Positions 2,518-58,990 of a stretch of 64,000 nt of DNA are shown here, piece by piece; positions within the stretch are counted from its first letter, which is position 1; the number at the start of each line of letters is the position of its first letter. Origin of the DNA: Bdellovibrionales bacterium. GTDB lineage: Bacteria > Bdellovibrionota > Bdellovibrionia > Bdellovibrionales > UBA1609. Location of the stretch: NCBI GenBank assembly GCA_965200875.1, contig OZ241456.1, positions 334,588 through 398,587 of the forward strand, written 5' to 3'. The notes below the pieces were generated by a model. The model was not told the DNA's origin, did not search any database, and saw only the letters and a list, made by a program, of their open reading frames with translations. A program made the translations under genes and the position numbers.

Positions 2518-2599
2518 TCTTACTTTATCTCTGGCTTTCTGGGAAGGAAATGGTTGTTTACGCTAGTCCACCGCACGCGCAATTTTTTTTAAATAAGTC

Positions 2600-2626
2600 T
2601 AAAGTCCACAAAAAACGGACCGATAA
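2600..2626 (+). promoter_or_regulatory. sigma-28 (FliA)-type promoter candidate upstream of trhO
   Basis: TAAAGTCCacaaaaaacggACCGATAA. This is TAAA-N15-(A)CCGATAA against the classical TAAA-N15-GCCGATAA consensus. It lies about 130 nt upstream of the 2758 start. Two near-identical copies occur at 10596 and 18806. Confidence 0.4.
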
Positions 2627-2757
2627 GCTAATTAATCGCTTTTTATGGCACTTTTGAGGAAAAAGAAGGGTAAAATGGACGACAATAAAGAATCCACAAA
2701 CAGTTAGTCGACTTAAAAAATAAAAAAACAACATAGGGAATCATATAAGAAGCTATA

Positions 2758-3681
2758 ATGTTTGAAAATGATAAAAATAACCCCGCTTTATATCAAATAG
2801 TGAGTTTTTATCGTTTTGTTTCTTTTCCAAAGCCCGTTTTAAAACAAATGAAGGAAACTCTGATAAAAACCGGTGCGGAAAAAAACATTGTGGGCTTGAT
2901 TCTCCTAAGTGTGGAAGGTATCAATGCCACCATTTCAGGAAATAAAGACAATGTAAATGACTATTTGCGGACAGTGGAACAGATTACGGGTATCGATAAC
3001 TTTTTTTATAAAAAATCTCCATCTCCCATTCCAGCTTTTAAAAAGTTAAGGGTAAAAGCGAAACAGCAGATTATTTCTTTTAGGAAGTCGCAAAGCGTCA
3101 CAGCGGATTTTGGATTTCATAATTTGGAACCCGATGAATGGGAGTCCTTGTTAAATGAAGAACAAGTGACTGTTTTAGATATTAGAAATGATTATGAAAT
3201 AGAAGTGGGTCAATTTAAAAGATCGAGAAATCTAAAGTTAAAAGAATTTAGTGAATTTTCTGAAAAACTCAAATCCTCCACTTTGCCTAAAGCACAAAAG
3301 ACATTGCTCTATTGCACAGGAGGCATTCGGTGTGAGAAAGCCATACTGGAAATGAAGAAACAGGGTTTTAAAGAACTGTATCAACTTAAAGGGGGTATTT
3401 TAAATTATTTAAAAACATTTCCAAACAGGAGTTTTGAAGGGGAATGTTTTGTTTTCGATCATCGTGTCGCAGTGGATCAAAACTTAAAAGCCTCCAGTAA
3501 ATATGCCCTTTGCCCTCATTGTGGCCAAGCGGGAGGAAAGACTATTGATTGTCTGCACTGTGGAAAAAAATTTAAAATCTGTAAGCACTGCTTAAAAAAA
3601 CAAATTAAATATTTAATGACTTGCACAAAAAACTGCTCGCATCATTTTCGTATGGGACATAAATGCAAAAAAGTTTTTTAA
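2758..3681 (+). CDS. trhO: rhodanese-domain protein, UPF0176/TrhO family (tRNA U34 hydroxylase)
   Basis: Active-site loop LYCTGGIRCEKA, YceA/TrhO-like N-terminal domain, and a Cys/His-rich C-terminal tail (CPHCG...CLHCG...CKHC). Confidence 0.8.
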   Translation: MFENDKNNPALYQIVSFYRFVSFPKPVLKQMKETLIKTGAEKNIVGLILLSVEGINATISGNKDNVNDYLRTVEQITGIDNFFYKKSPSPIPAFKKLRVKAKQQIISFRKSQSVTADFGFHNLEPDEWESLLNEEQVTVLDIRNDYEIEVGQFKRSRNLKLKEFSEFSEKLKSSTLPKAQKTLLYCTGGIRCEKAILEMKKQGFKELYQLKGGILNYLKTFPNRSFEGECFVFDHRVAVDQNLKASSKYALCPHCGQAGGKTIDCLHCGKKFKICKHCLKKQIKYLMTCTKNCSHHFRMGHKCKKVF

Positions 3682-3729
3682 AGGAAAAACAGTTGCATAA
3701 ACTTTGCTTTAAGTCTTAGACTAAAAAAT

Positions 3730-4653
3730 ATGTGGTTTGGAATATTAGCTTTTGTTTTTTGTTTTTCTTATTTTGCAGAAGGTGCGGATTGGTTTTCCGG
3801 GAAGAATATGACCTTGGAAGAGAAAATAAAATTGACAGAGCGTATAAGAATACAAACAGTGAAACAAAAAAACTCTTCAGCCCAAAAACATAAATATATG
3901 CGGAGCAATAATAAAAAATCATCTGTTCACTCTCCTTCTCGTTTATATGTTTCGAAAAAAGATCGTCATAATGTCAGAATGATTTTAGCTCTTCCTTTGG
4001 AAAACAGAAAACAGGCTTTATGGAATTACGGAGCACGGGGTTTTCTGGCTTTAAAGTATTTGGTGTTTTCAAAAAAAGAGCAAATGTCTGTTCGTTGGAA
4101 GGCTTTAACCAGTTTGGCGCGTTTATACCCGGAAGAGGCCCTCCCTATTTCCAGAAAGGCTCTTCGTAGTTCTGTTTGGTTCTTAAGGAATGCTGGTTTA
4201 ATAGCCATAGAGATCATAGATGTAAAAGAGAGTATTCAGAGGGCGGGGGATTTGTTGAACGATCCTTCTTTAATTGTCAGAACAGCCGCTGTTGATGTCC
4301 TTAAAAGAAATAAAGCCAGCCAGTATAAAATTCAGCTGATGGAAAAGTTAAATGCCCCTGATAGCTTTTACAAAAACAAGAGCCTTTGGATTCGTCACCA
4401 TATTGTGTCTGCTCTGGCCAGTTTTTGTGAACCCGGGGAGGAAAGAATGTTTATTGCTTTTCTTAAGGATCCGGATGAAAGATTGCATGCTTATGCTATT
4501 TCCGCTTTGGAAACATTAACAGGAAAGACATTTCGCACCACTGGCGACAAACGGAAAGTGGCTGAAAAAACACAAAAAAATAAATGGATAAGTTGGTGGA
4601 CAGAAGGTCGTTATAACTCCAAAACCCACTCTGAAATTTCCATAAAGCTCTAG
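3730..4653 (+). CDS. exported HEAT-repeat protein
   Basis: N-terminal hydrophobic signal-like segment (MWFGILAFVFCFSYFAEG). Repeated helical units of HEAT/PBS-lyase style follow (LIVRTAAVDVLKR, ERLHAYAISALETLTG). Confidence 0.5.
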   Translation: MWFGILAFVFCFSYFAEGADWFSGKNMTLEEKIKLTERIRIQTVKQKNSSAQKHKYMRSNNKKSSVHSPSRLYVSKKDRHNVRMILALPLENRKQALWNYGARGFLALKYLVFSKKEQMSVRWKALTSLARLYPEEALPISRKALRSSVWFLRNAGLIAIEIIDVKESIQRAGDLLNDPSLIVRTAAVDVLKRNKASQYKIQLMEKLNAPDSFYKNKSLWIRHHIVSALASFCEPGEERMFIAFLKDPDERLHAYAISALETLTGKTFRTTGDKRKVAEKTQKNKWISWWTEGRYNSKTHSEISIKL

Positions 4654-4666
4654 TTTTTTTCATTTT

Positions 4667-5289
4667 TTACATATCAATATTCGGTACGCCACCATAAGCT
4701 CCGGCCAAATATTTTTTAAAAATATTTTCATCATTTCTTATTCCTGGAAATTCATCTAATCTGTATACTTCACTTTCGCATTCCTGGTTTTTTTGAACTA
4801 AAAATATCTGATATTTAGAGAGCACGCTCATTAAAATCGGCGTATGTGTAGCACAAATGAGTTGAGCACCTTTTGGATTGGTTTCTTCGGAAGTAAATAA
4901 ATTAACCAAGGTTGGCAATATATTGGGATGTAAGTTGCGCTCTATTTCATCGATTAAAAACACAGAGCCTTTTTTTAAAGTTGGAAATATAAAACTTAGC
5001 AGATTGTATAAGTGTTGAGTCCCTCCTGATTCAAGAGGTAAAGGAAGCTTGAATGTTTTATCTTTACTTTTATGTATTCCATACGGGAAAAAATGTTTCT
5101 GTTTATTCCCTCTGAAAAAACAGATGACACCTTGGAGAATCGATCACCTTCATTACACAAACCAAAATGACTGGTTTTAGGGGCATTTTCATTGACCAAA
5201 AAATTCATTTTCACCTCTTCTTTAAAAGAGTAAAAATTTTTGAGTCCAATAGAGATGATTGTCATTTGAAACTCCTTTTTGCAAAACAC
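4667..5289 (-). pseudogene. decayed AAA_21/AAA_15-type ATPase (defence-island-type ATP-binding protein), frameshifted and internally deleted
   Basis: N-terminal fragment (4996-5289) begins MTIISIGLKNFYSFKEEV, typical of this family, but the Walker A GxxGxGKS/T is missing. The C-terminal fragment is in another frame. It reads upstream of its first Met as ...LPLPLESGGTQHLYNLLSFIFPTLKKGSVFLIDEIERNLHP (signature plus Walker B), then ICATHTP. Total about 200 aa against about 350-450 aa for intact members. Confidence 0.55.
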
Positions 5290-5518
5290 TATAAAACTGG
5301 TTTATTTTAGATTATTTTAACGAAAAATCTTATATTATTTATATAAATAATATATAAGCTATAATATAATCTTAATTTCAACAAAAAATCGTTAAAAGTC
5401 AACTTTTTATTGTTGATTTTTTTCCCTTAAAGGGGATTTCTCCTGTTTAATTCAGTTTTTGGGTCATAGGTAAAGGGATAATAGGGGAAAAATAAAGCTT
5501 TTTTATTGCTTTTTTATG

Positions 5519-6013
5519 TTAGCTTGCAGAAGATCTTTTATGGTGGTTGGTGATAGCTCGTTCTATATTAATTTCCCGGTGAATGCGATATAAAATGGAT
5601 CGTTCTTCCAGACCATTTGAGGGTATTCGTTTGGGGTTTTCTATAAAGCCTTTTTGAAGAAGTATCTTTTTTAAGACAGTTACTTTTACAGCAGGTCGGG
5701 ATTTGGACTTTCCTTTTATCATTTTTATATGGAGGGTGTATTTTGCGGCCGCTAAGGTGTCATTTCTTTCCACCGGGAATTTCCATATTGTTTCTACAGG
5801 AATACTTTCTGTTTTTAAATATCCTTTTTCATTGTTTTCCGCTTCTATGGGATAGTCTTCCAGAGCTAACATGGTCGCACTCCAGATTTTTTGATAATCA
5901 GCCTGGAATATTTTTGAAATCGGGTGCATAATATTAGCAACCGGGTCTTTAGTCGCGCAACCGGATAACAGGAAAACAGAAAAAAGTGAAAACACCACAT
6001 AAAATATTTTCAT
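5519..6013 (-). CDS. lipoprotein, function unknown
   Basis: Signal peptide with lipobox FLLSG|C (MKIFYVVFSLFSVFLLSGCATKD). 164 aa. Confidence 0.6.
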   Translation of the reverse strand: MKIFYVVFSLFSVFLLSGCATKDPVANIMHPISKIFQADYQKIWSATMLALEDYPIEAENNEKGYLKTESIPVETIWKFPVERNDTLAAAKYTLHIKMIKGKSKSRPAVKVTVLKKILLQKGFIENPKRIPSNGLEERSILYRIHREINIERAITNHHKRSSAS

Positions 6014-6065
6014 ACAAAGTCTCTATATTTCTCAGTTTATTTTTATCAATAAATCTCCCCTGAGA

Positions 6066-6094
6066 TTGACATATTAGTATAAAACCAAGACAAT
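6066..6094 (+). promoter_or_regulatory. sigma-70-type promoter candidate for the tRNA
   Basis: TTGACA (6066-6071), 17-nt spacer, GACAAT (6089-6094). The tRNA starts at 6115. Confidence 0.3.
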
Positions 6095-6114
6095 AGTTTG
6101 GCAATTATTATTAT

Positions 6115-6188
6115 GGCGGGGTAGCTCAGGTGGTTAGAGCAGCGGAATCATAATCCGCGTGTCGGGGGTTCAAGTCCCTCCCTCGCTA
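6115..6188 (+). tRNA. tRNA with CAU anticodon (elongator tRNA-Met; the lysidine-modified tRNA-Ile2 cannot be excluded)
   Basis: Hand-folded cloverleaf. Acceptor GGCGGGG/CCTCGCT (two G-U pairs), D arm GCTC-AGGTGGTTA-GAGC, anticodon arm GCGGA-ATCATAA-TCCGC, T arm GGGGG-TTCAAGT-CCCTC, discriminator A. CCA is not encoded. It is not initiator-like: there is no C1-A72 mismatch and no GGG/CCC anticodon stem. Confidence 0.85.
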
Positions 6189-8001: not shown

Positions 8002-10575
8002 TTATCTGCATATATTTTTATAGTTGTTATTATGTGTGCCAATATAGATTATCTGAATAATGCCATTTTGATCTTTCTTCCAACACACAACATACTTTTT
8101 TCCACTTATATGGGCATGATAAACATGTCTGTCTCTGAATCTAAATCCTGTTGAGGGTTTACTTACTCCTCTTGGTAGTGTTTCGTTTGGAGGAGGTGAT
8201 AATCCTGTTCTTCGTAAAATATTCATTAATTGTGTAAGCTCGTTCAATTTCTCTGGTGGGAATTTATTGCCTTTGTGACCTATATTATTTGCTCTATTGT
8301 ATGGAAGCATTACTATGTGGTTTTCTCCTGCTCTTCTTTTTATCCGTGTTAAACCATTTAATAATTCTTGTATTTGTGTTTCGTCCGTTCTTGCTAATAG
8401 ATTGCTGAGGATAGTTACTGTCCGCTCTCTTTCCTGTTCCAGTGTTTGTGGTGGTCTGTTGTGTCCAACCACTCCATCTTCCATAAGTGCTCTTACTTGT
8501 GAGGCTATAAAACCAGCTTCTCTTAGTATTGTGGCTTTCTGTCTGATTTCAGGTCGGGTATAGACAGTGCGAGCTTGGTTTATCCAATTAGTGACTCTAC
8601 TAAGCCTTTCTTCTCCTACAAGATGTGCTCTGTGGATGGCTCTTACTTGATCATTGCTTAAAGTTTGCCCCAAGCTTTCTTCTGCTGATTTTCTGAGTCT
8701 TCGTAAGTCACTTATTTTTTCAGAAGTTTTTTGAATCGTACGAGCTAAAGCCACAGTCCCGGGAACAGCAACTGGGAGAGATAGCAAAGCCACATTCATC
8801 AGGCAGGATTTGTAATTTGCCTTTAAAGTGGCTGTCTCCTTGATTTCTTCACTACAGCTGTTGTTAGAACTTTGAAACTTAGCTCCCTCTATCCGATTCC
8901 AGTTTTCATTGCATTCGTCAAAAGTGTCTTGTACATGATCCATTGAAGCCAAAACTTCCGCACTCAATAAAGCCCCCGTCATGCCTCGTGTTGGCTTGGT
9001 TGCTCTTCCTGCTGAAAGCACTCTTGCCACTTTTACTGCCGCTTTTCCTCCTAAAGCGATTCCTGTAAGTCCTAATGTTCCTGCCATCAACAAAGCATCT
9101 AAAGCCAGACCTTCCATTAAGTCATTGGCACTTTCTCTTTTGTCTCTGGCCTCTTCCCGGCATTGCGCCGCCTTGAGTGCAGAAAGCGAAGAGTCCCTCA
9201 GGCCATAGCTGTTGGGGCTTTCCAAATCATCCAGCTTAGGAGAGCTGGCAATAACCTGCAAAGTATTTTGACATTGTTCAGGATCATAAACTTGACTGTT
9301 CAAACATTTTAAAGCTTGTTTTTGCTCTTTCAGTGTGTCCATCAGCTCGAGACTGGTCACCTCTGCTTGATCTTTAAGTAATCGAACCACCTGTTGAGGA
9401 GACTCCTTTTCCTCTTCCAGAAGATCCGAAAGCCCAGACTTAAATTTATTGCCGTTTATCCAAGGGTAAAGCTCATCAATCATCCCTATTGTTGAAGTTA
9501 GTTTTTTTTCCTGATCTGTCAAAGATTTCAAATCCTCACTCAGCACTGATAAATTCTCTGGAGCTTCAGAGTTTTGCCGGTCTGGTCTGGTTTTGGACCA
9601 AGCCCCTGTCCGGTTTCTTTGAATATACTGATCTGCTACAGAAGTTATTTGCGGGCGAACAGATTTTTTAAGCTTATCCTCTAAAAGCTTTTTGGCCTGA
9701 AGGGCCTGTATGGTTTGTTCAGCCACATCAAGGGATTTTCCAGGAGCGGAACATTGTTTTAAGTTCTCGCACTTTTCAACAAGTGCGGGAAATTCCTGAA
9801 AATCACAAGCCACTTCAGGGAGCAGGGAGTGGCCTTCTTCTCCGACCATTTCACCTAAACTGGCAAGGCTGGTCAAAGTTTGCTCAATGCCTCTTTCAAG
9901 TTTCTTCATGGAATAATAGTAATCGGCCACAAATCGTGTTTGATCCTTGGTTGTAACTGCTCTTCCACTTATCCTGCCACGCCGGCCTCTTCCGCTTCTT
10001 CCACCGACCCGGTTTGTTGTCTGAGGAAGACAGTCAGGGGAGCTTACAGGTCTTAGGGGAATAAACGATTCAATAAAATCAGCTTGATTGATATCAGCTT
10101 CCAGATGAGAGGGGTTTGGTTTTGCTCCATCGGTTTCACATTGGGAAATAGGTGAAGAGACTATCCCCAGATGAGAGCTTTTTTGATCCTGAGACAAAAA
10201 TGTTTTTAAAATGTTGGGACAGCCAAAGAGAGCCTGGTTTTCTAGGCAAACTCCGGCGCAATTTTCTTCCAAAGGATCTCTTATGGAATTAATTTCCAAA
10301 AGAGTGCTCATTTGTTCTTCGGCAAACTGGTTATGGCATTTCCGCTTTTCCGATTCCTGATTTAAGTTTATAAATTCCTCTAAAGAGGGACAAAAGCAAC
10401 CCGTTTCTGTATAATAAACTCCACCGATCTCAGAACACTGTCTGGTGTTGTTTCTTTCTTCACGGGTTTGTTGATCATCCTGGAGAGATGATCTGTCTGG
10501 TTGAGCCAAGGCTGTTGTTATTATCAACATCCAAGTTGTAAGAGTCATAATCATTTTTACGAGAATCATAATCAT
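8002..10575 (-). CDS. large secreted modular protein with C-terminal YafQ/RelE-like (BECR-fold) endoribonuclease domain; polymorphic-toxin-like
   Basis: Signal peptide ...MIMTLTTWMLIITTALA|QPD, then a Cys-rich N-terminal region, an Arg/Gly tract and long coiled-coil-like segments. Two hydrophobic helices follow (GLALDALLMAGTLGLTGIALGG; CLMNVALLSLPVAVPGTVALA). The last ~105 aa align by eye to E. coli YafQ: KLNELTQLMNIL...LSPPP...GFRFRDRHV...YVVCWKKDQNGIIQIIYIGTHNNNY versus KLKYLMTLL...LPLP...GYRDAHV...WILIYKLTDKLLRFERTGTHAALF. Confidence 0.7.
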   Translation of the reverse strand: MIMILVKMIMTLTTWMLIITTALAQPDRSSLQDDQQTREERNNTRQCSEIGGVYYTETGCFCPSLEEFINLNQESEKRKCHNQFAEEQMSTLLEINSIRDPLEENCAGVCLENQALFGCPNILKTFLSQDQKSSHLGIVSSPISQCETDGAKPNPSHLEADINQADFIESFIPLRPVSSPDCLPQTTNRVGGRSGRGRRGRISGRAVTTKDQTRFVADYYYSMKKLERGIEQTLTSLASLGEMVGEEGHSLLPEVACDFQEFPALVEKCENLKQCSAPGKSLDVAEQTIQALQAKKLLEDKLKKSVRPQITSVADQYIQRNRTGAWSKTRPDRQNSEAPENLSVLSEDLKSLTDQEKKLTSTIGMIDELYPWINGNKFKSGLSDLLEEEKESPQQVVRLLKDQAEVTSLELMDTLKEQKQALKCLNSQVYDPEQCQNTLQVIASSPKLDDLESPNSYGLRDSSLSALKAAQCREEARDKRESANDLMEGLALDALLMAGTLGLTGIALGGKAAVKVARVLSAGRATKPTRGMTGALLSAEVLASMDHVQDTFDECNENWNRIEGAKFQSSNNSCSEEIKETATLKANYKSCLMNVALLSLPVAVPGTVALARTIQKTSEKISDLRRLRKSAEESLGQTLSNDQVRAIHRAHLVGEERLSRVTNWINQARTVYTRPEIRQKATILREAGFIASQVRALMEDGVVGHNRPPQTLEQERERTVTILSNLLARTDETQIQELLNGLTRIKRRAGENHIVMLPYNRANNIGHKGNKFPPEKLNELTQLMNILRRTGLSPPPNETLPRGVSKPSTGFRFRDRHVYHAHISGKKYVVCWKKDQNGIIQIIYIGTHNNNYKNICR

Positions 10576-10595
10576 TCAGTTGTTTGCAGGCTAGC

Positions 10596-10622
10596 TTATC
10601 GGTTGTCTTTTTGTGGACTTTA
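10596..10622 (-). promoter_or_regulatory. sigma-28 (FliA)-type promoter candidate for the 8002-10575 gene
   Basis: The minus strand reads TAAAGTCCacaaaaagacaACCGATAA (TAAA-N15-ACCGATAA). It is nearly identical to the 2600 copy. The -10 element ends about 20 nt upstream of the first in-frame ATG (10575). Confidence 0.4.
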
Positions 10623-10880
10623 GACTTTTATCTTAATTTTTTTAATGAAGCTCAAAAAAATCGTTTATTTTCCCAGACCATTAAATGCGCTCTCTCTTCC
10701 TTTTAAATGTGCGCACTCTTCCTTACAGGAAAGAAATGTTTTTTGAGTTTAGTCTTAGGTCCTGAAGTTATCTTTGGTCTTAATTTTTTTTTAATATATG
10801 TCGAAACAGTAATAAGAGGCAGTCGTTCTTTAAGCCGTGAAGCGATGTTTTTTAAATTGTGAATATGAGGTAATTTGTAG

Positions 10881-13832: not shown

Positions 13833-14453
13833 TTATGAAACGAATCCTAATACAGCAAATCCAACGATTATCAGACTTCCTAGAATACCCACTAAATTCA
13901 ATGTGAGGTCTTTTTTTAAGAGAGACATATCTTTTTTGATTTCCAAACGCAAAAGTTCTATGTCTTTTTTTACATCAGCGATATCTTTTTTGGTTTCGTT
14001 GCGCAGAAGTTCTATGTCTTTTTTGGTTTCGTTGCGCAGAAGTTCTATGTCTTTTTTTACATCAGCGATATCTTTTTTGGTTTCGTTGCGCAGAAGTTCT
14101 ATGTCTTTTTTGGTTTCGTTGCGCAGAAGTTCTATGTCTTTTTTTACATCAGCGATATCTTTTTTGGTTTCGTTGCGCAGAAGTTCTATGTCTTTTTTGG
14201 TTTCGTTGCGCAGAAGTTCTATGTCTTTTTTTACATACTCAATTTCTTTTTTTACATCAGCGATATCTTTTTTGGTTTCGTTGCGCAGAAGTTCTATGTC
14301 TTTTTTTACATACTCAATTTCTTTTTTTACATCAGCGATGTCTTTTTTAGTGGCCATTACATTTTCCTGAAAATAGATCAGGGTATTGGCTTGTTGTTCT
14401 GTGAAGCCGTTTTCTTTAAGATATTCCACTTGTTTGATTAAAGCAGTAGCCAT
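13833..14453 (-). CDS. DUF1640/Bdr-like coiled-coil tandem-repeat protein, C-terminal membrane anchor
   Basis: N-terminus ...YLKENGFTEQQANTLIYFQENVMATKKDI resembles the DUF1640 head. Then 7- and 11-aa units (KKDIADV, KKDIELLRNET, KKEIEYV) iterate. Ends in a hydrophobic tail LVGILGSLIIVGFAVLGFVS. Confidence 0.6.
   Translation of the reverse strand: MATALIKQVEYLKENGFTEQQANTLIYFQENVMATKKDIADVKKEIEYVKKDIELLRNETKKDIADVKKEIEYVKKDIELLRNETKKDIELLRNETKKDIADVKKDIELLRNETKKDIELLRNETKKDIADVKKDIELLRNETKKDIELLRNETKKDIADVKKDIELLRLEIKKDMSLLKKDLTLNLVGILGSLIIVGFAVLGFVS
13940..14345. repeat. coding tandem repeat, 87-nt higher-order unit (21+33+33 nt) about 3 copies plus variants
   Basis: catcagcgatatcttttttggtttcgttgcgcagaagttctatgtcttttttggtttcgttgcgcagaagttctatgtcttttttta recurs essentially unchanged. 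It lies inside CDS 13833-14453. Confidence 0.85.
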
Positions 14454-14508: not shown

Positions 14509-14554
14509 GGAAAAAGCTGTTAACGAACTGTTATTACTTGATTTTTTTATAAAA
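14509..14554 (+). repeat. dispersed ~45-nt repeat, copy 1 (orientation A)
   Basis: GGAAAAAGCTGTTAACGAACTGTTATTACTTGATTTTTTTATAAAA. See the copies at 20593, 22057, 30147 and 33703. Confidence 0.8.
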
Positions 14555-15061: not shown

Positions 15062-17512
15062 CTAATTTCGATACTGGCAAGTTCGGCTTATTGGGTCATA
15101 ATAAGTACCGGGTGGGCAACAGGTGTTGTGTGTGCGATCATACACAGATCCGTTTGGACAGCAAATATTGCCTGTGCCATGATTATAGTTCCATCCGTTT
15201 GGACAACAGGTGCCGTTTGAGAAATTATATCCGTCTGGACAACATGTTCTACCTCCTACGGAATAATATCCGTTTCTGCAACAACCAGAATCAATAGAAT
15301 GTCCCAAAGCACAAGCCCTATTGTTTTTAACACATAATACTGTTCCTGCCGGAGTGTTTATATATTCGCCGGCTCTGGCAACCTTGCGAATATGTCCAGG
15401 CATACAGCAAGCTCCACTGGAACTTGGACAACAATTTCCATTACGGAGGTGTGGAGCGGTGCGAGGACATCGCTCACATCTATCACCATAGCGTAAATGA
15501 TTTCTCGGACAGAACCAGCACTTATTGTCGTATTCGTGTTGTCGCCCCCTCGGACAACGGTTGCAACTGTTGTTATAGTGCCAGTATCTGTTACGCGGAC
15601 ACTGGCGACAGTATCCGAAATAATGGTGTCTTCTGTCACGATGGCAACGGTTGCATTTCCCATCGTAAAAATACTCAGCTCTGCAACTATGACATCCTCC
15701 ATTGTGTTCATATCGTCTATACACCGGACAACGGTTGCAACTTCCCCAGTAATAATGTTGCCCCCTCTGGCAAGTGTTGCATCTTCCATTGTAGTAGTGC
15801 GGAACATGTCTTGCACATTTATTACACCGGCCATTATAATAATACCTTTCATTGAGGGGACAGCGGTTGCAGGTTCCCCAGTAGTAATGTTGCCCGCTCG
15901 GGCACCGGTTACAAGTCCCGCTATAATAATGTTGTCCGCGTGGGCATTGGTTACACCGACCTCCATAATAATACTTCCTAGAGCTTGGGCAACGATGGCA
16001 GGCCCCGCTATAGTAATGTTGCCCTCGTGGACAGCGATTACATCTGTTATTATAGTAATGTCTTTGGTAGCTTGGACATTTGTTGCAGGTTCCTCCATAG
16101 TAATACTTCCTTGAGCTGTTGCATCGGTTACACCGGCCATTATAATAATATCTTTCATTGAGGGGGCAACGGTTGCAAGTTCCACTATAGTAATGTTGCC
16201 CGCTCGGACATTTGTTGCAGGTTCCATCATCGTATTTATAGGGTGTGGAGCTTGGGCATTCGTGGCAACTCCCGTCGTAGTAATGCTCTCCACTGGGACA
16301 TTTATTGCATACATTACTGTGGTAGTGTGGAGTCCCCTCAGGGCATCTGTTACACACATTACTATAGTGGTGTGGAGTCCCCTCAGGGCATTTGTTGCAT
16401 TGGCCATCGTAAAAATGAATTTTATTGGCTGGGCAGGTGTTACAGCTCCCATTATAGTAATGTTCTCCACTTGGGCACATATTGCAGGTTCCACTATAGT
16501 AATGTTGCCCGCTCGGACATTGGTTACATGTTTGATTGTGATTGTAGTAATAGGGTTTATCTGCTGGACAAGCACATTCCTGATTTGGAGGGGTTCCTCT
16601 GTGCCGAGTTTCCCCTACGCATACACATTCCGCGCTTTCTTGATCCCACCTCTGCCTTGTTTCACAAACCCCCGCACATTCCAGTTCCCCGGAGGATTTT
16701 ACACTTACCACAATTTGCCCCTCTGGACATGCCATATTCTCTGAACTACTGGCATGAATCAAAGCCGAACATTGGATATTATCACCACCTGTATAAGCAG
16801 ATGGTGAATCAGAACAAGGATCATAATCAACACAGTCAGGTGTTCCATCGGGCTTAAATCCACGAAAATGTTTATAAGGCCCTTCGTCCTCACAACTCAC
16901 ACTCTGGAAGCCCTTTCCGGTATGACAATCTAGGGGAACACACTTATCTTCAGTGCCATCACATGCCTCATTCGAACACTTGTAATCCAACACACAGGTT
17001 TGATGATAACAACCGGTTTTATCTGTGGCGGAACAACCCCCACCCCCTAAAGTTTCATTACCCCTAAGATAAGGCTTTGTGTAAAACACAATTAAAAGTC
17101 GCTTTGGGTGATCCTTATCAATATTCACTTCCTTTTTCAGCTCAATCCCCTGAATGGAAATAAAATCATCTTGTGTAAACTGTCCTATGGATGTAAGGGG
17201 ATCTGAGAGATTTCCTTCATCATCCAGCTCATGCAACAAACCACTTTGGTGTTCTTTGTCGCTCTCCGAAAGCCGGGCAGGCTTTGTTATATCCTTGCAA
17301 TTAATTTCATTACTTAAAAACTCTTTTGTTCTGTGAGATAAAACCTGCTCTGCCAGATTGGTTCTGATTACCTGCTCGGACTTTACCGATATTCCTATTA
17401 TTTTTAATGTGCTCAAGCTTATAGTGAGGCCCAGAGTGCCAGCCACTAAAATGCCAGCTAGTCCTCCAAATCCTCTTTTTCCTCTTAAAAAACTTGTGTA
17501 ATACATTTTCAT
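15062..17512 (-). CDS. type IV (minor-)pilin-like protein with 25 CxxC modules and vicinal-Cys C-terminal region
   Basis: N-terminus GKRG|FGGLAGILVAGTLGLTISL has prepilin-like Gly-Phe plus a hydrophobic helix but no Glu5. Its core is homologous to the upstream gene. Residues 329-693 hold 25 modules, C-x2-C-P-x-G-x-H-Y-Y-x-G-x, with period 13-16 aa. Residues 694-816 hold 7 CC pairs (CCPxG(Y/W)...). By my count there are 86 Cys in 816 aa. Confidence 0.7.
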   Translation of the reverse strand: MKMYYTSFLRGKRGFGGLAGILVAGTLGLTISLSTLKIIGISVKSEQVIRTNLAEQVLSHRTKEFLSNEINCKDITKPARLSESDKEHQSGLLHELDDEGNLSDPLTSIGQFTQDDFISIQGIELKKEVNIDKDHPKRLLIVFYTKPYLRGNETLGGGGCSATDKTGCYHQTCVLDYKCSNEACDGTEDKCVPLDCHTGKGFQSVSCEDEGPYKHFRGFKPDGTPDCVDYDPCSDSPSAYTGGDNIQCSALIHASSSENMACPEGQIVVSVKSSGELECAGVCETRQRWDQESAECVCVGETRHRGTPPNQECACPADKPYYYNHNQTCNQCPSGQHYYSGTCNMCPSGEHYYNGSCNTCPANKIHFYDGQCNKCPEGTPHHYSNVCNRCPEGTPHYHSNVCNKCPSGEHYYDGSCHECPSSTPYKYDDGTCNKCPSGQHYYSGTCNRCPLNERYYYNGRCNRCNSSRKYYYGGTCNKCPSYQRHYYNNRCNRCPRGQHYYSGACHRCPSSRKYYYGGRCNQCPRGQHYYSGTCNRCPSGQHYYWGTCNRCPLNERYYYNGRCNKCARHVPHYYNGRCNTCQRGQHYYWGSCNRCPVYRRYEHNGGCHSCRAEYFYDGKCNRCHRDRRHHYFGYCRQCPRNRYWHYNNSCNRCPRGRQHEYDNKCWFCPRNHLRYGDRCERCPRTAPHLRNGNCCPSSSGACCMPGHIRKVARAGEYINTPAGTVLCVKNNRACALGHSIDSGCCRNGYYSVGGRTCCPDGYNFSNGTCCPNGWNYNHGTGNICCPNGSVYDRTHNTCCPPGTYYDPISRTCQYRN
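15434..16528. repeat. coding tandem array of 42-45-nt CxxC modules (25 units, diverged)
   Basis: Periodicity read from the translated protein. Several units are near-identical (CNRCPLNERYYYNGR twice; CPSGQHYYSGTCN three times). Stop codons are depleted in several frames on both strands. Confidence 0.8.
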
Positions 17513-17518
17513 GTTAAC

Positions 17519-18682
17519 CTATTTAGGTATGTCAGGTTCAGGTACGCAAACTATCGGTGCTCCTCCCGGTTCAGGGAGAGGACATTCACATTTTTTAGTA
17601 TCTGGATTATACCTTGTAAGGCCTGTACAGATTATTGGTTCATCAGGTTCATCAGGTTCAGGGGTTGGTTCATCAGGTTCAGGGTTTGGATCATCAGGTT
17701 CAGGCGGAGGCACAATACATTTTAAACTTATTTTGTTCCAAATTTTTCCAGTCGGGCATTTACAGGTCACCCCGGTCCAGATTTTGTCATAAGGACAATC
17801 ACAATTTGACCCAATCCTTCCCCCGGAACAGATACGGCTACAAATCGGATCCCCGTCTTTGTCAAAACCCTGTAAAAACTCGTCAGCATTCGGACAACTT
17901 AAATTCCCAGTTTCAGGAATCGCCGGAAATGCCCGGCAATCTTCTTCACCGTCTGCTTTTCTGCCAACATAAACTTGACCGGGAGGGCAGGTTGGTTTTT
18001 CCTGGCATCTTGGGTTTCCATCTCCGTCAAATCCGCTTAAGTATTGTTCATCTGAACAAGACACACTCAAACTATCTCCTATACTTTTGCAAGCTGATAA
18101 CGAACAGCTGGTGATTTTATTATTATCGCCGGGGTCATGCACGATTTCCAAATCACAGGATTGGTGATAACAGCCTTTGTTGTCAGTGGTTGAACATTCT
18201 CCATCTCCCAAGGTTTTATAAGAACCTAGTTGAGGCTTGCTGTAATAAACAGCAAAAGTATATTTGTCCGAACCTTCGTTTGACAGTTCAAGGCTTTTTA
18301 CAGATATCAGATCGCCTTTAAAACCTCCGGTGGCAAGATAAAGTATGTCGTCTGAAGTGTTGGGACTTGGAGGGGTATTGTTTCCCTCAGTCTTCATATA
18401 TTTACCGCCGGTGAGTTTGCCTTTTTTATGGGTGCGGTCAGAGAGCCTAGAAGGATCTAAATTCCATTTGCAATCCTCCTCATTGCTTAACATTCGCCGA
18501 ATGGTGATATACAAATCCTGCTCCTTTTGCTGAGTGCTGGACACCTGAGCAGAGCTTATGGTTATTTGAGAGAGCTTTAAAACGGCTAGACCTAAAACAA
18601 GTCCAACCCCGGTGGCTACAAATACTTCCACCAGACCAAAACCTTTATTGCCAAAGAGAATTTTTTTCATACATGTGGTCAT
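17519..18682 (-). CDS. type IV pilin-like protein (class III signal peptide) with Cys-rich globular region and Pro/Asp/Glu-rich tail
   Basis: MKKILFGNKG|FGLVEVFVATGVGLVLGLAVLKL has Gly-1, Phe+1, Glu+5 and a hydrophobic helix. C-terminal PPPEPDDPNPEPDEPTPEPDEPDEP linker, then CxC/CP motifs. A 6-nt gap separates it from the downstream paralog. Confidence 0.75.
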   Translation of the reverse strand: MTTCMKKILFGNKGFGLVEVFVATGVGLVLGLAVLKLSQITISSAQVSSTQQKEQDLYITIRRMLSNEEDCKWNLDPSRLSDRTHKKGKLTGGKYMKTEGNNTPPSPNTSDDILYLATGGFKGDLISVKSLELSNEGSDKYTFAVYYSKPQLGSYKTLGDGECSTTDNKGCYHQSCDLEIVHDPGDNNKITSCSLSACKSIGDSLSVSCSDEQYLSGFDGDGNPRCQEKPTCPPGQVYVGRKADGEEDCRAFPAIPETGNLSCPNADEFLQGFDKDGDPICSRICSGGRIGSNCDCPYDKIWTGVTCKCPTGKIWNKISLKCIVPPPEPDDPNPEPDEPTPEPDEPDEPIICTGLTRYNPDTKKCECPLPEPGGAPIVCVPEPDIPK

Positions 18683-18804
18683 GGTTTTTAAAGTTCCCTC
18701 TCTTTAAACTATACTGGCCTCGCAATAAAATTCTTGTTTTCTTGCAAAAAGTGTCTTTAATGTGCTTGGTTTTACTCATTCACTTTAAATTGGTTCAAAA
18801 TGGC

Positions 18805-18832
18805 GTATCGGTCTTCTTTGATTAGGACTTTA
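18805..18832 (-). promoter_or_regulatory. sigma-28 (FliA)-type promoter candidate for the pilin-like operon
   Basis: The minus strand reads TAAAGTCCtaatcaaagaagACCGATAC (TAAA-N16-ACCGATAC). It lies about 120 nt upstream of the 18682 start. Confidence 0.4.
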
Positions 18833-19063
18833 GTGGGGAGAGTGAAAAAAACTGGTCTTATGGGACAAAAAACAGCTTAAAAAAGCTTAAAAACAAAAAA
18901 AACTTGAAAGAGGCAAAATGAGGTATATACTTATCTACACGACTATTGAATGGGTCTTGGATAAATACTCCTGCTCCATCCAATACTTAGAGCTTGATAT
19001 GATAAGATTTTTTTTTGATGGATGATTATAAATTTCGGAAAAAATAAGAATTAAGGAGGAAAG

Positions 19064-20230: not shown

Positions 20231-20411
20231 ATGAATGATTGAATTTAGGTTTTTAGATAGTACCCTTTGAAAAACCTCTGATAAAACAGGTTACTCGCCT
20301 GTTAAAGAAAAAGCTTCCCACCTCAAGCATAAGGTATGAGTCACTTTATTTTTTATCTTTTAAGCTGTTTAATGAGTCGATCCTGAATAAGTCTGTTTAG
20401 TGAGATATGCT

Positions 20412-20520
20412 CTTACCAATACTTCACCGCTCGGTCTCAAACATGCGTTTTGCCACACACGCGTCTTTTCAGTCGCGGTGTGCTCAAAGCCGAACTCGCC
20501 TCGTGGTGAGTATCGGTAAG
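20412..20520. ncRNA. GC-rich structured intergenic element (candidate ncRNA or cis-RNA; family and strand unknown)
   Basis: Outer stem CTTACCAATACTTCACC (20412-20428) pairs with GGTGAGTATCGGTAAG (20505-20520), about 15 bp with one mismatch and one bulge. Inner hairpin GCCACACACGCG-tcttttcagt-CGCGGTGTGC (20450-20483). Local GC is far above the flanking intergenic DNA. Confidence 0.25.
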
Positions 20521-20592
20521 ATCTTTTTCACTGATACTTTTTGCAAGAAAACAAAGGTTGTATTGTAAAATCTTGCAATTTTTCCCGAACCG

Positions 20593-20622
20593 TTTATAAA
20601 AAAAATCAAGTGATAACAACGC
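20593..20622 (-). repeat. dispersed repeat, copy 2 (orientation B, diverged distal half)
   Basis: The plus strand reads TTTATAAAAAAAATCAAGTGATAACAACGC. It is inverted relative to copy 1. Confidence 0.65.
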
Positions 20623-20747: not shown

Positions 20748-21299
20748 CTATTCTTTTTTCGAAAACCATACTCTCATATCTTCTTTTAAATCTTTAAAAC
20801 CACTTGTCATATCAATTCTCAAACCATCAATTTTTTTATTTGTATCAGTGATATGATTACTCAAATCTTTTTTCGAATCATCAATTTTTTTATTTGTATC
20901 AATTCTCAAATCATCAATTTTTTTATTTGTGTCAATTCTCAAATCATCAATTTTTTTATTTGTATCAATGATATAATTACTCAAATCTTTTTTCGAATCA
21001 TCAATTTTTTTATTTGTGTCAATTCTCGAATCATCAATTTTTTTATTTGTATCAGTGATATAATTACTCAAATCTTTTTTCGAATCATCAATTTTTTTAT
21101 TTGTATCAGTGATATAATTACTCAAATCTTTTTTCGAATCATCAATTTTTTTATTTGTATCAGTGATATGATTACTCAAATCTTTTCGGATATGTCTCAT
21201 TTCAATGGCAAGATAAACCAAGATAACTATCCCTATCACAGAATATACGGGGACTTGGTCGCCTAAATAATTAAAAAAAAGAGGTGCAAAATTACTCAT
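20748..21299 (-). CDS. tandem-repeat (TDTNKKIDD) coiled-coil protein with N-terminal membrane anchor
   Basis: N-terminal TM helix VYSVIGIVILVYLAIEM. Then 18-aa units (KKDLSNYITDTNKKIDDS) and 11-aa units (RIDTNKKIDDL) iterate. The KID-type repeats are reminiscent of Borrelia Bdr proteins. Confidence 0.6.
   Translation of the reverse strand: MSNFAPLFFNYLGDQVPVYSVIGIVILVYLAIEMRHIRKDLSNHITDTNKKIDDSKKDLSNYITDTNKKIDDSKKDLSNYITDTNKKIDDSRIDTNKKIDDSKKDLSNYIIDTNKKIDDLRIDTNKKIDDLRIDTNKKIDDSKKDLSNHITDTNKKIDGLRIDMTSGFKDLKEDMRVWFSKKE
20812..21185. repeat. coding tandem repeat, 54-nt and 33-nt units
   Basis: atcatcaatttttttatttgtatcagtgatat(a/g)attactcaaatcttttttcga and atcatcaatttttttatttgtgtcaattctc(a/g)a recur. 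They lie inside CDS 20748-21299. Confidence 0.85.
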
Positions 21300-22056: not shown

Positions 22057-22095
22057 CAAAAAATCAAGTATTCACAGTGTGTTAACACGCTATAT
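22057..22095 (-). repeat. dispersed repeat, copy 4 (orientation B), upstream of rpmE
   Basis: The plus strand reads ACAAAAAATCAAGTATTCACAGTGTGTTAACACGCTATA. It contains the perfect palindrome GTGTTAACAC. Confidence 0.7.
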
Positions 22096-29773: not shown

Positions 29774-30166
29774 ATGAGAAAAACTTTAAAACAACCCGTG
29801 CCTTTATCTGACATTTTACATACTTTTTTTCAGGATCGCCTCAATAAAACTGATCAGGGGATAGAAATAAAGCTTTGGCAAAACTGGTCTCAATTTGCTA
29901 CACCGGAAGTTTTAAAATGTGCCAAACCTGTCAATTATCAAAATGGTAGATTAATTTTATGGGTGGCTCATTCTGTGGAGCTTCAGGAGTTGAGTTTTCA
30001 TCTGGAAGACCTGAAGCAGGCGATCAACAGTTATTTTAAAAAAAATTGGGTTAAAGACATTTATTTTACCGTTAATAAAGATCTCTTGAACAAAAAAGAA
30101 AACTCCTTGAAATTTCTTCAAAAAATATCCAAAGAATCCGCACCGGTTTATAAAAAAATCAAGTAA
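29774..30166 (+). CDS. DUF721 (DciA-like) domain protein
   Basis: 130 aa. The pattern ...W..I.......A.P..Y.NG.L.V.V.....A.EL.F....L is characteristic of DUF721. Its last 20 nt overlap dispersed-repeat copy 3. Confidence 0.5.
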   Translation: MRKTLKQPVPLSDILHTFFQDRLNKTDQGIEIKLWQNWSQFATPEVLKCAKPVNYQNGRLILWVAHSVELQELSFHLEDLKQAINSYFKKNWVKDIYFTVNKDLLNKKENSLKFLQKISKESAPVYKKIK

Positions 30167-30190
30167 TAACAGTGCGTTAACACCTTTTTC
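30147..30190 (-). repeat. dispersed repeat, copy 3 (orientation B)
   Basis: The plus strand reads TTTATAAAAAAATCAAGTAATAACAGTGCGTTAACACCTTTTTC. It matches the reverse complement of copy 1 at all but about 3 positions. Confidence 0.8.
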
Positions 30191-43267: not shown

Positions 43268-44947
43268 ATGCTCTCAGAAACTGCAAAACAAAAGATGATA
43301 ATGAACCGCTTTTATATTACAACGCCTCTTTATTATGTCAACGACAAACCCCACTTAGGCACTGCCTATAGTACTGTTCTGGCTGATGTTCTCAATCGTT
43401 ATCATCAACTTGTGGGATACGAAACTTTTTTTTTAACGGGTGTTGATGAACATGGCCAAAAAGTTAGTCAAGCTGCGAAACAACAAAATATTCCGGTTCA
43501 AACTTATTGCGATCAAATGTCCAAAAGATTTGAGACCGTTTGGAAATTAATGGATATTTCCTACAATCGCTTTTTCAGAACTACTGCAAAATGGCATAAA
43601 AAAGCTGTTCAAAAGTTTCTGCAAGAACTCCACGACAAAAAACAAATTTATGAATCCACTTATGAAGGCTGGTACTGTGTTAGTGAAGAAACTTTTTATA
43701 CTTCAAAAGATCTGATAAACGGAAAATCCCCTTCCGGGAAAGAAGTTATAAAAATAAAAGAAAAAAATTATTTTTTTAAAATGTCCTCCTACCAAAAGCC
43801 TTTATTGGAATATATTGACGAAAACCCTGATTTTATCCAGCCCCCTCATCGAAAAAATGAAGTTATAAGCTTTTTAAAGCAGGGGTTGAGTGATTTATGT
43901 ATCAGTCGACCCAAAAGCAGAGTGAATTGGGGAGTGGAGATTCCTTTTGACACGGATTATGTGACTTATGTATGGGTGGATGCTTTGCTGAATTATATCA
44001 CCGGCGTAGGCTGGCCTCCGCAAAGTGGTGGAGGGAGAAAACAATTCTCTTTCACCAATCCCCTAAAAAGTGAGGACTTTGAAAAGTGGTGGAAAGAAAC
44101 GGGAGCTGTTCATCTGATAGGAAAAGATATTTTAATCACCCATTGCGTATATTGGCCTTGTTTGTTAATGGCTTTGGGAATCAAACTTCCAAAAACCATA
44201 TTGGCACATGGCTGGCTTTTGAATCAATCCCAGGAAAAAATGAGTAAATCAAAAGGGGATGTGATGGATCCCTTGAAGATTTTAAACAAATCCTCGGCAG
44301 AAAAATCTTCAAAAAAATTATCCAGCGGGACAGGAAAATCAAACCCAAAGAACAATATACAATTTTTTGATTCAGACAGCCTTCGTTATTTTCTCATTCG
44401 GGATGTTCCCTTGGGAAACGACTCCCCTGTCTCTCATACCCTTATTGCCAACAGAATTAATGAAGACTTAGCCAACAACTTTGGCAATTTAATCAGTAGA
44501 ACCACAAAAATGATTCATCAAGGCTTTGAATCCAAAATTCCTGAAAGAAACTGCAAAACAAGTAAAAACCCCTTGATCGAAAATCTGAGACATAAAGGAA
44601 TAGAAGTTACAACAGAACTAAAGGCAAATCTTCTCCGCCCTCATCTTATACTGGAAAATATTATTAATTTGTTGAATGAAACAAACCGATTTTTGGAAAA
44701 AAGTGCTCCTTGGAAAACCATTAAGACCAATAAGCAGGATACAGGGGCTGTTTTACGATCCGCTCTGGAAATTATTTATTTGTCTGCCGTATTGCTGAAA
44801 CCGGTTATGCCAAAAAAAATGGATCAGCTATTAAAAAGCCTCGCTTGCCCGGATGAATGGCCGGTGGAGAACTTTCAAAGCGGTTTTTTTCCAAAAGCCG
44901 GTGAAACGATCCAGGAATTTCCACCTCTTTTTCCCCGTATAAACTAA
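43268..44947 (+). CDS. metG: methionyl-tRNA synthetase (short form, no C-terminal tRNA-binding domain)
   Basis: YITTPLYYVNDKPHLGTAYS (HIGH-type) and KMSKSKGD. Likely start at MIMNRFY (43295). There is a Ser/Lys-rich insertion after KMSKS. Confidence 0.95.
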   Translation: MLSETAKQKMIMNRFYITTPLYYVNDKPHLGTAYSTVLADVLNRYHQLVGYETFFLTGVDEHGQKVSQAAKQQNIPVQTYCDQMSKRFETVWKLMDISYNRFFRTTAKWHKKAVQKFLQELHDKKQIYESTYEGWYCVSEETFYTSKDLINGKSPSGKEVIKIKEKNYFFKMSSYQKPLLEYIDENPDFIQPPHRKNEVISFLKQGLSDLCISRPKSRVNWGVEIPFDTDYVTYVWVDALLNYITGVGWPPQSGGGRKQFSFTNPLKSEDFEKWWKETGAVHLIGKDILITHCVYWPCLLMALGIKLPKTILAHGWLLNQSQEKMSKSKGDVMDPLKILNKSSAEKSSKKLSSGTGKSNPKNNIQFFDSDSLRYFLIRDVPLGNDSPVSHTLIANRINEDLANNFGNLISRTTKMIHQGFESKIPERNCKTSKNPLIENLRHKGIEVTTELKANLLRPHLILENIINLLNETNRFLEKSAPWKTIKTNKQDTGAVLRSALEIIYLSAVLLKPVMPKKMDQLLKSLACPDEWPVENFQSGFFPKAGETIQEFPPLFPRIN

Positions 44948-46371
44948 AAGTCTTTGGAGTAAGAGTCTTTTCTGCGATTGGGTGTGGGAATATTCATGGA
45001 CTCCCTGTATTTGGCAATCGTCCGGCGCGCAAGATGCACCCCTAAATCTTCCTTCAGATGATCCATAATATATTGATCAGAAACAGGATCTTTTTTGTTT
45101 TCGTTTTTAATGTAAGATAAAATTTTCAATTTCACTACTTCACCGCTTATCTTTTCCCCTCTGTCTGTTTCAAGACCTGAGTTAAAAAAATATTTAAGCT
45201 CATATACACCATGTGGAGTATGAGCATACTTATTAGTGGTGACACGGCTTACGGTGGATTCATGTACACCGACTTCTTCCGCAATTTGCCTGAGAATCAT
45301 GGGTTTCATTCCTATAGACCCTTTTTTAAAAAATTCCATTTGATGTTTTACGATAGCTGAAGTGACTTTAAACATGGTCTTTTGACGCTGGTTAATGGAG
45401 CGAATCAGCCAAAGTGCAGAGTTCATTTTATGTCGTAAATACCGTTGTGTGGAGTCCAAGGGCAAAACTTTATCATTATCCAGCCCCCCTTTTAACATAT
45501 CCTGGTACACATGAGCCACTCTTAAGTGTGGCAAACCCTCTTCATTAATGGATACCCGATATCCATTTTCCTCTTTAATAATATACACATCTGGCGTGAC
45601 ATATTGAATAGGTTGTGTAACGAAACGGCGACCGGGTTTAGGTTCCATGGCAGTAATGATTTTATACAGATCCATCACTTCCTCTTCTGTCAACCCCATT
45701 TTTAAAGCAATAGCATTAAAGTTCTTGCTTTCCAAATCTGACAGATGGTTTTCAATTAGAGTAATCAGATCTTTAGTGTCTTCTTGATTTTGACGAGCCT
45801 GAATCAACAAACACTCTTTTAAATTTCTGGCTCCTACTCCGTTGGGATCCAAAGTATGTAATAGCTTGAGTGCCTTTCTTAAGGTGGACAAATTTGTGCC
45901 TGTTTCATTGGCTATGTGCTCTAGGGGAACAACCAAATAACCATCTTCATTCAAACGATCCACCAGTAAATTCAAATGTGCTTTCTCTTGATTGGAAAAA
46001 CCACTCATTTGAATTTGCCACACCAAGTGATCATAAAGGCTTTGTTCTGTGGAAATAACATTTTCTAGATTAAATACACCATCAGCGGACTTTACCTGAG
46101 ACTGCCTGGGGCCTCGCACAGAATAAGTGCTTGTAAACTCCATCCAAGTATGTCTTTCTGGGAGTTCTTCCTGATTGGATAATTCATCCATACTCTGTTC
46201 TTCCATTGTATCATGTACTTCCTCTAAAACCGGATTTTCCAGCAATTCATCTCTAACCGCTTGCTCTAATTCCATTATAGGGAGAGTAAGAAGTTTTATG
46301 GACTGTTGAAGTTGAGGTGTCATCTTCAGTTTTTGAGCCAGTTTCATTCCCATTTTTAAATGCGCCGACAT
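44944..46371 (-). CDS. rpoN: RNA polymerase sigma-54 factor
   Basis: Region I MKLAQKLKMTPQLQQSIKLLTLPIMEL. HTH ESTVSRVTTNKY. RpoN box ARRTIAKYRESM. Confidence 0.95.
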   Translation of the reverse strand: MSAHLKMGMKLAQKLKMTPQLQQSIKLLTLPIMELEQAVRDELLENPVLEEVHDTMEEQSMDELSNQEELPERHTWMEFTSTYSVRGPRQSQVKSADGVFNLENVISTEQSLYDHLVWQIQMSGFSNQEKAHLNLLVDRLNEDGYLVVPLEHIANETGTNLSTLRKALKLLHTLDPNGVGARNLKECLLIQARQNQEDTKDLITLIENHLSDLESKNFNAIALKMGLTEEEVMDLYKIITAMEPKPGRRFVTQPIQYVTPDVYIIKEENGYRVSINEEGLPHLRVAHVYQDMLKGGLDNDKVLPLDSTQRYLRHKMNSALWLIRSINQRQKTMFKVTSAIVKHQMEFFKKGSIGMKPMILRQIAEEVGVHESTVSRVTTNKYAHTPHGVYELKYFFNSGLETDRGEKISGEVVKLKILSYIKNENKKDPVSDQYIMDHLKEDLGVHLARRTIAKYRESMNIPTPNRRKDSYSKDF

Positions 46372-58860: not shown

Positions 58861-58990
58861 AATACCCTCCTTGTTTTCTTTTATTTGTACAGCTATTTCT
58901 TTTTAAAAACAACTTATTTTGGAGGTCATCTGCCTTAAGAATTGGGCTTATTGAAATTCTCTGACGGACTTTTCTCCCCTTTAGGTTTTT

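Follow-up and report, generated by a model that had tools for sequence, protein, structure and literature searches.

Putative sigma-28 (FliA)-type promoters upstream of three non-flagellar transcription units in a low-GC Bdellovibrionota genome

Three intergenic sequences in the first 19 kb of the window (by which is meant the whole stretch of 64,000 nucleotides that was analysed) are, on the evidence of their sequence, very likely to be promoters read by RNA polymerase carrying a sigma factor of the FliA/SigD/WhiG family (sigma-28). They lie in the part of the window where orphan and surface-type genes cluster. The sigma-28 identity follows from the statistics of the motif, the intergenic position of the sites, their fit to mapped promoters, the genes that follow the motif in other phyla, and the recurrence of the motif before a family of pilin-like proteins. 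The sites belong to a well-known promoter class, the non-flagellar use of which in this phylum is already published, and the lineage-specific near identity of two of them is a modest curiosity.

The three sites and their fit to mapped FliA promoters

Three sequences with the sigma-28 consensus had been listed in an earlier sequence-only reading, and all of them are present at the positions and on the strands that it gave (Table 1). The -35 extension TAAAGTCC is common to the three sites, the extended -10 element is ACCGATAAG in sites 1 and 2 and ACCGATACG in site 3, and the spacers between the two 8-mers are 11, 11 and 12 bp, respectively. The pattern TAAAGTCC-N11/12-ACCGATA is found three times in the window, against an analytic expectation of 0.0003, and TAAAGTCC-N10-13-CCGATA is also found three times, with no occurrence in 100 dinucleotide-preserving shuffles. 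When the window was scanned with the consensus TAAAGTCC-N10-13-ACCGATAA, the numbers of sites with 0, 1, 2, 3 and 4 mismatches were 2, 1, 0, 2 and 29, compared with 0, 0.03, 0.07, 3.6 and 28 in the shuffles. The three sites are thus followed by a clean gap and then by background, with no sites of intermediate quality.

Table 1. Positions of the features discussed in the text
Feature	Position in window	Strand	Description
Site 1	2600-2626 (promoter span 2599..2628)	+	CTAAAGTCC-N11-ACCGATAAGC, putative sigma-28-type promoter
Site 2	10596-10622 (promoter span 10594..10623)	-	CTAAAGTCC-N11-ACCGATAAGC, putative sigma-28-type promoter
Site 3	18805-18832 (promoter span 18803..18833)	-	CTAAAGTCC-N12-ACCGATACGC, putative sigma-28-type promoter
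Site 1 unit (predicted)	2758..4653	+	trhO 2758-3681, HEAT-repeat gene 3730-4653
Site 2 unit (predicted)	8002..10575	-	857-aa (or 848-aa) secreted orphan, signal peptide
Site 3 unit (predicted)	15062..18682	-	387-aa pilin-like gene 17519-18682, 816-aa cysteine-repeat gene 15062-17512
36-nt cassette, left copy	2595-2630	+	AAGTCTAAAGTCCACAAAAA-N4-ACCGATAAGCTA
36-nt cassette, right copy	10592-10627	-	inverted orientation
rpoN and FHA-domain sigma-54 activator	44944-46371 and 61682-62974	-	sigma-54 system
Adjacent short ORFs	4667-5289	-	98 + 97 aa
Coiled-coil repeat genes	13833-14453 and 20748-21299	-	small proteins
Candidate small RNA	20408-20528	+	~120 nt, inside a 518-nt convergent gap
TTTATAAAAAAATCAAGTAATAACAGTnCGTTAACA element	14510-14553, 30147-30190, 22058-22087, 20599-20618		repeated intergenic element
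ACTTTTTGCAAGAAAACAA	18734-18752	-	19 nt, in the predicted leader of site 3
ACTTTTTGCAAGAAAACAA	20536-20554	+	identical second copy, inverted

All three sites are intergenic in a window that is 90% coding and 10% non-coding, and the first start codon on the same strand lies 131 nt beyond the -10 element at site 1, 20 nt at site 2 and 122 nt at site 3. It had been pointed out that each site faces a downstream gene. This is true but carries little weight, because each of the three intergenic regions is flanked by divergent genes, so that a site on either strand would face a gene and the orientation alone is no evidence. A weaker fourth promoter, proposed at 58938-58968 (-) upstream of the lipoprotein gene 58312-58860, is at chance level. 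In the consensus scan it is placed at 58948-58973, with four mismatches, a 10-nt spacer and no CCGA core, and it scores 3.9 bits versus 15.6-20.1 bits for sites 1-3.

The reference used for promoters of this kind in the phylum is Bdellovibrio bacteriovorus, in which 140 attack-phase transcription starts were mapped and the motif TTAAG-N16-CCGATA was found in 92 of them and assigned to FliA (Karunker et al. 2013, PMC3627812). FliA is essential in this species, and in an E. coli reporter it switches on the promoters of flagellin and flp1/Tad (Avidan et al. 2017, PMC5430801). As the attack-phase master regulator it drives most attack-phase genes, including those of surface proteins and the Flp/Tad pilus operon (PMC3627812, PMC5430801), and the tie between FliA-type promoters and attack-phase genes, which the sequence-only reading had mentioned, is documented in the literature.

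A two-block weight matrix was built only from the 92 FliA-flagged promoters in Table S2 of PMC3627812 (139 of its 140 rows were used), aligned on the -10 element. The aligned promoters have the profile C-T-[T/A]-A-A-G followed by CCGATAA-G, and in the anchored ones the CCGA core shows 92-100% conservation. From the -35 G to the first C of CCGATAA the distance is 17 nt in 58 of 85 promoters and 16 nt in 23 of 85. The spacings in the window are these two commonest classes, that of site 3 being the commonest. A C before TAAAG and a G after CCGATAA are preferred in the mapped promoters, and therefore the C and G flanks common to sites 1-3 belong to that consensus. The promoter of Bd3754 has an identical TAAAGTCC-N11.

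Among the approximately 128,000 window positions scored with this matrix, site 2 (20.2 bits), site 1 (19.9 bits) and site 3 (17.2 bits) rank first, second and third, and the fourth-ranked position scores 14.4 bits. Under a uniform background the scores of sites 1, 2 and 3 are 19.0, 20.1 and 15.6 bits, which place them at the 76th, 88th and 37th percentiles of the real FliA promoters (median 17.1 bits under the same background). For the attack-phase promoters that lack a FliA site, the median is -2.6 bits and the 90th percentile 4.1 bits. The fit to the matrix, the correct spacing, the intergenic position, and the occurrence of the motif before flagellar and chemotaxis genes elsewhere (see below) all uphold the original assignment of the sites to the sigma-28/FliA type. 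Transcription starts 8 nt past CCGATAA in 68 of 89 mapped promoters, and this rule gives predicted starts at ~2634 (A) for site 1, ~10588/10587 for site 2 and ~18797/18796 for site 3, the same positions as had been put forward before.

The matches might instead be non-functional, being products of chance or of decay, with the genes transcribed from other promoters. Sites 1 and 2 are not kept in relatives, as described below, and a scan with the sigma-70 consensus gave many weak matches in the AT-rich DNA of the window. The same scan, however, gave no strong, correctly oriented sigma-70-like site overlapping the three upstream regions, and a chance origin is difficult to reconcile with three occurrences where 0.0003 are expected, with the intergenic position of every one, or with their occupying the top three ranks in the window under a matrix derived from independent experiments. 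This explanation is therefore considered very improbable.

Under the preferred reading, in which the sites are sigma-28 promoters, a FliA homologue would be encoded in this low-GC (38%) Bdellovibrionota genome. From what is established of sigma-28 factors, the -35 element (C)TAAAGTCC would be contacted by region 4, and the extended -10 element (A)CCGATAA(G), situated 11-12 bp downstream, by regions 2 and 3. Transcription in vivo would begin about 8 nt past the -10 element, near the starts given above. The putative targets would be trhO with the HEAT gene, the secreted 857-aa orphan, and the prepilin-type/cysteine-repeat operon.

Predicted transcription units and the remainder of the window

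The first predicted unit has a leader of 124 nt before trhO, the product of which carries the Pfam domains UPF0176_N, Rhodanese and Rhodanese_C. The HEAT-repeat gene follows after a gap of 48 nt, and convergent genes lie beyond it.

The predicted leader at site 2 is 13 nt long if translation begins at ATG 10575, or 40 nt if it begins at ATG 10548, the codon at which the database protein P0128 begins. The 857-aa protein has no Pfam or NCBIfam family, and NCBIfam gave none for any of the orphan proteins. It had been described as tipped with a YafQ-type toxin. This description is weakly supported: the ParE-like_toxin match in the last 125 residues is below threshold (E = 0.022), the C-terminus has a single match among PDB sequences (E = 1.9), and its AlphaFold model (pLDDT ~45) is too poor for a fold comparison.

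The two genes of the site 3 operon are 6 nt apart, and the predicted leader is about 115-127 nt long. The N-terminus of the 387-aa protein, MKKILFGNKG/FGLVEVFVATGVGLVLGL, contains a prepilin-type cleavage motif (KG/FGLVE), and in the database entry P0124 the protein has 383 aa with a different start. The label 'pilin-like' is weakly supported, by the visible G/FGLVE motif at the N-terminus, and the Pfam N_methyl match is just E = 0.68; the AlphaFold model has a pLDDT of ~45.

The leaders of the three units have ordinary secondary structure (z = -0.7, -0.6 and -0.3), and the tRNA-Met is the only Rfam match in the window. The predicted leader of site 3 contains a 19-nt piece, ACTTTTTGCAAGAAAACAA, the second copy of which directly follows a candidate conserved small RNA (Table 1). 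This candidate has a minimum free energy of -47.6 kcal/mol (z = -5.2) and no match in Rfam at E ≤ 1. Copies of it are present at unrelated loci in relatives, namely L117 7688-7806 (-), L001 11146-11258 (+) and L002 8626-8762 (+), with the invariant core GTCTCArACATGCGTTTTGCCAC...TCAAAGCCGAACTCGC. Compensatory changes affect 8 of the 34 pairs predicted. A T-run comes after the outer stem, as in a terminator, and in L117 a sigma-28-type match of 16.5 bits is found on the same strand some 70 nt upstream. The sequence CCGATAC at 20510-20516 was considered as a possible site and rejected; it belongs to the RNA stem and has no -35 partner. The TTTATAAAAAAATCAAGTAATAACAGTnCGTTAACA element occurs in four copies, two sharing 95% identity over 44 nt and two being weaker.

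The remainder of the window holds mostly housekeeping genes (pst-phoU-phoBR, pdxJ, dciA, uvrB, topA, metG, pur genes and a thiolase gene). The earlier statement that no flagellar or fliA gene is present in the window is borne out by Pfam searches of all major ORFs, which gave no fliA, flagellar or chemotaxis gene, and none was seen at the loci of relatives that were read, where the sole sigma factor is RpoH-like (L117). The window does contain rpoN and an FHA-domain sigma-54 activator, so the organism has a sigma-54 system beside the putative sigma-28 one. Of the two short adjacent ORFs at 4667-5289, the first matches just the C-terminal end of AAA_21, and together they are probably a broken ATPase gene. 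Two small proteins consist of coiled-coil repeats of 11 or 18 residues (KKDIELLRNET...), and their genes show matching tandem DNA repeats with a period of 33 or 54.

The near-identical pair and the fate of the sites in relatives

Sites 1 and 2 lie within two 36-nt copies of a cassette (Table 1), which are 32/36 identical (89%), 7,961 nt apart and facing inward. The similarity stops sharply at the borders, and the flanks are unrelated. The identity of the two sites, previously counted as 24 of 27 positions, is actually 23 of 27, and the differences form one block, ACGG versus GACA. To judge what the promoter consensus would impose, the mapped FliA promoters of B. bacteriovorus were compared pairwise in the same 36-nt frame (3,828 pairs), which gave 15.0 ± 2.7 matching positions with a maximum of 26/36; sites 1 and 3 match at 18/36. 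The two copies are therefore more alike than the consensus requires, as had been claimed. No further copy of the cassette was found in the window, and the 27-nt core has no exact match in the JGI metagenomes. The sequence TCTGGGAA, about 50 nt upstream of both sites, was also noticed and set aside, its sharing being within chance by the estimate made here.

One explanation of the near identity is that sites 1 and 2 are composite, each being a sigma-28 promoter combined with the site of a second factor or with a required DNA shape. Such a constraint would account for the agreement at 32 of 36 positions, among them the spacer CCACAAAAA, AAGTC upstream and GCTA downstream, an identity well outside the range of real FliA pairs. 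It also fits the confinement of the four differences to one block, which lies where the spacer would be under the weakest constraint, and the unrelated flanks accord better with a constraint over 36 nt than with a very recent large duplication. On the other hand, the extra positions are missing from site 3 and from the promoters of relatives, no palindrome or known operator is visible, and two copies fit common descent as well as they fit constraint. The lack of further copies in the window, and of exact matches to the 27-nt core in the metagenomes, speaks against it too, as does the failure of a stricter pattern fitting both sites to bring up any related genome among those of 185,579 species. 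A composite site is on balance unlikely.

Alternatively, the inverted pair may be the terminal inverted repeats of an 8-kb mobile element, to which the likeness to promoters would be incidental. The inverted, inward-facing arrangement and the distance between the copies are as such an element would have them. Relatives that have no repeat, however, keep the same order of genes both within the segment and across it: L002 and L112 have ABC2-ABC-trhO-HEAT, and L001 has trhO-HEAT-164aa-SLT-like. Moreover, there is no transposase between the copies and no target-site duplication in the flanks, and site 3 and the sites of relatives show the bipartite motif with no partner repeat. The reading of the 36-mers as transposon ends was rejected on the ground of this synteny and is regarded as the least credible of all the explanations considered.

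The relatives bear directly on the history of the sites. The nearest named TrhO homologues are in metagenome-assembled genomes labelled Bdellovibrionales, Bdellovibrionota or Pseudobdellovibrionaceae. No TAAA-N16/17-CCGATA was found upstream of trhO in L112 (89% TrhO identity), L001 (76%) or L002 (73%), and the sigma-28 motif is likewise absent upstream of the homologues of the 857-aa protein in L116 (60% identity) and L117 (52%). Sites 1 and 2 are thus absent at all orthologous loci examined, and therefore they are not a conserved feature of the regulon. The intergenic region upstream of trhO evolves fast. In L112 (2040-2290) a unit of ~60 nt (TGGCATCYTrGAACAnTAAACAACTGTTAG) is repeated in it about four times in tandem, and the region is devoid of the sigma-28 motif.

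The pilin-like protein has three homologues, the third of which is a paralogue in the source genome; no relatives of the family were found in metagenome contigs. In L114 (56% identity) the operon is preceded by TAAATTTT-N11-TCCGATAA, which scores 19.6 bits. L115 carries the orthologous two-gene operon (pilin-like plus cysteine-repeat), and in it TAAAGTGA-N12-ACCGATAA occurs twice, each time preceding a pilin-like gene. These two copies sit in a 3.6-kb segmental duplication (4649-6183 and 8171-9795) comprising a Transposase_31 (Rpn/YhgA-like) gene, the sigma-28-type promoter and the start of the pilin-like gene; the second copy has a C15 homopolymer in its leader. In L117, TAAAGGGT-N11-AACCGATAA lies 37 nt ahead of an orphan ORF, and Rpn-like genes flank the homologue of the 857-aa protein. 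The sigma-28-type motifs in L114, L115 and L117 indicate that the clade uses this type of promoter. The putative sigma-28 link is kept for the pilin-like family, and those of trhO and the 857-aa protein are lineage-specific.

This pattern suggests that the sigma-28 regulon turns over quickly, and that the links of trhO and the secreted protein to it would be recent, made through one near-identical 36-nt module. It is conceivable, though the suggestion is a tentative one, that the cassette is a sigma-28 promoter module which has been copied into new places in this lineage alone, thereby recruiting trhO-HEAT and the 857-aa protein to the FliA regulon. In favour of copying are the identity of the two copies, the absence of both sites at the orthologous loci, including that of the relative with the most similar TrhO, and the case of L115, in which a sigma-28 promoter was duplicated together with an Rpn/Transposase_31 gene. 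The cassette might also hold the site of a second regulator. If the copying did take place, it would represent growth of a regulon through the spread of a finished promoter and not through point mutation.

Comparison with known sigma-28 systems

Current understanding of sigma-28 promoters is unchanged by these sites. If they are active, the takeover of FliA for the global control of surface and secreted proteins, known from Bdellovibrio, would extend to a distant, uncultured, low-GC branch of the phylum with small genomes, and three candidate genes of the attack-phase type would be at hand in an otherwise unannotatable region, among them the prepilin-type/cysteine-repeat operon and the large secreted protein.

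In a search of 185,579 species, each represented by one genome, the pattern CTAAAGTCC-N11/12-ACCGATAMGC, which fits sites 1-3, was found 12 times and never in a relative of the source organism. The first correctly oriented ORF downstream encodes a chemoreceptor in Thauera, FlgM in Rubrivivax, the YjfB motility protein in Holophaga, FlgB in a gammaproteobacterium and flagellin in a Burkholderiaceae genome. In one further genome it is a GGDEF-EAL protein, in two Solibacteraceae genomes an SLT transglycosylase, and at three matches it belongs to no family; the match in a flavobacterium is probably due to chance. Since at least five of the 12 matches are just upstream of genes for flagellin, FlgM, FlgB, YjfB or a chemoreceptor, the exact extended motif marks classical sigma-28 genes elsewhere. 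At the locus in a Turicibacter metagenome-assembled genome (L105), where 1334-1363 is the exact match, two more sigma-28-type sites are present at 219-248 and 1983-2012 (22.7 and 25.1 bits), all three inside 2 kb.

The class 3 flagellar promoters of E. coli and Salmonella have the consensus TAAAGTTT-N11-GCCGATAA, and the corresponding promoters in Bacillus subtilis are those of sigma-D. The window sites agree with these at 13 of 16 consensus positions and in the spacer of 11-12 nt. They differ from the E. coli and Salmonella promoters in that the -35 element ends in CC and not TT, that an A and not a G precedes CCGATAA, and that the genes downstream are neither flagellar nor chemotactic. A use in genes of a developmental stage that are likewise not flagellar is found in an unrelated lineage, the chlamydiae, the sigma-28 promoters of which serve late genes such as hctB according to the mention in PMC3627812 (its reference 25); the likeness is one of analogy and not of compared sequences.

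The closest counterparts are the FliA promoters of B. bacteriovorus, and the arrangement in the window resembles the control of attack-phase genes by FliA in that species. A point against the sigma-28 reading is that trhO is no obvious motility or attack gene. The window sites differ from those of B. bacteriovorus in having TAAAG at -35 where the published motif has TTAAG, in coming from a different, low-GC (38%) lineage with replicons of roughly 1.8-2.3 Mb, in that two of the three are lineage-specific and near-identical, and in being known from sequence alone. The two sets nevertheless belong to the same phylum, to judge from the labels on the nearest named TrhO homologues, and have the same bipartite motif, C-T-[T/A]-A-A-G, 15-16 nt and CCGATAA-G, with scores in the same range. 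In both, the targets, which in the window are putative, include non-flagellar genes of the surface, secreted and pilus types.
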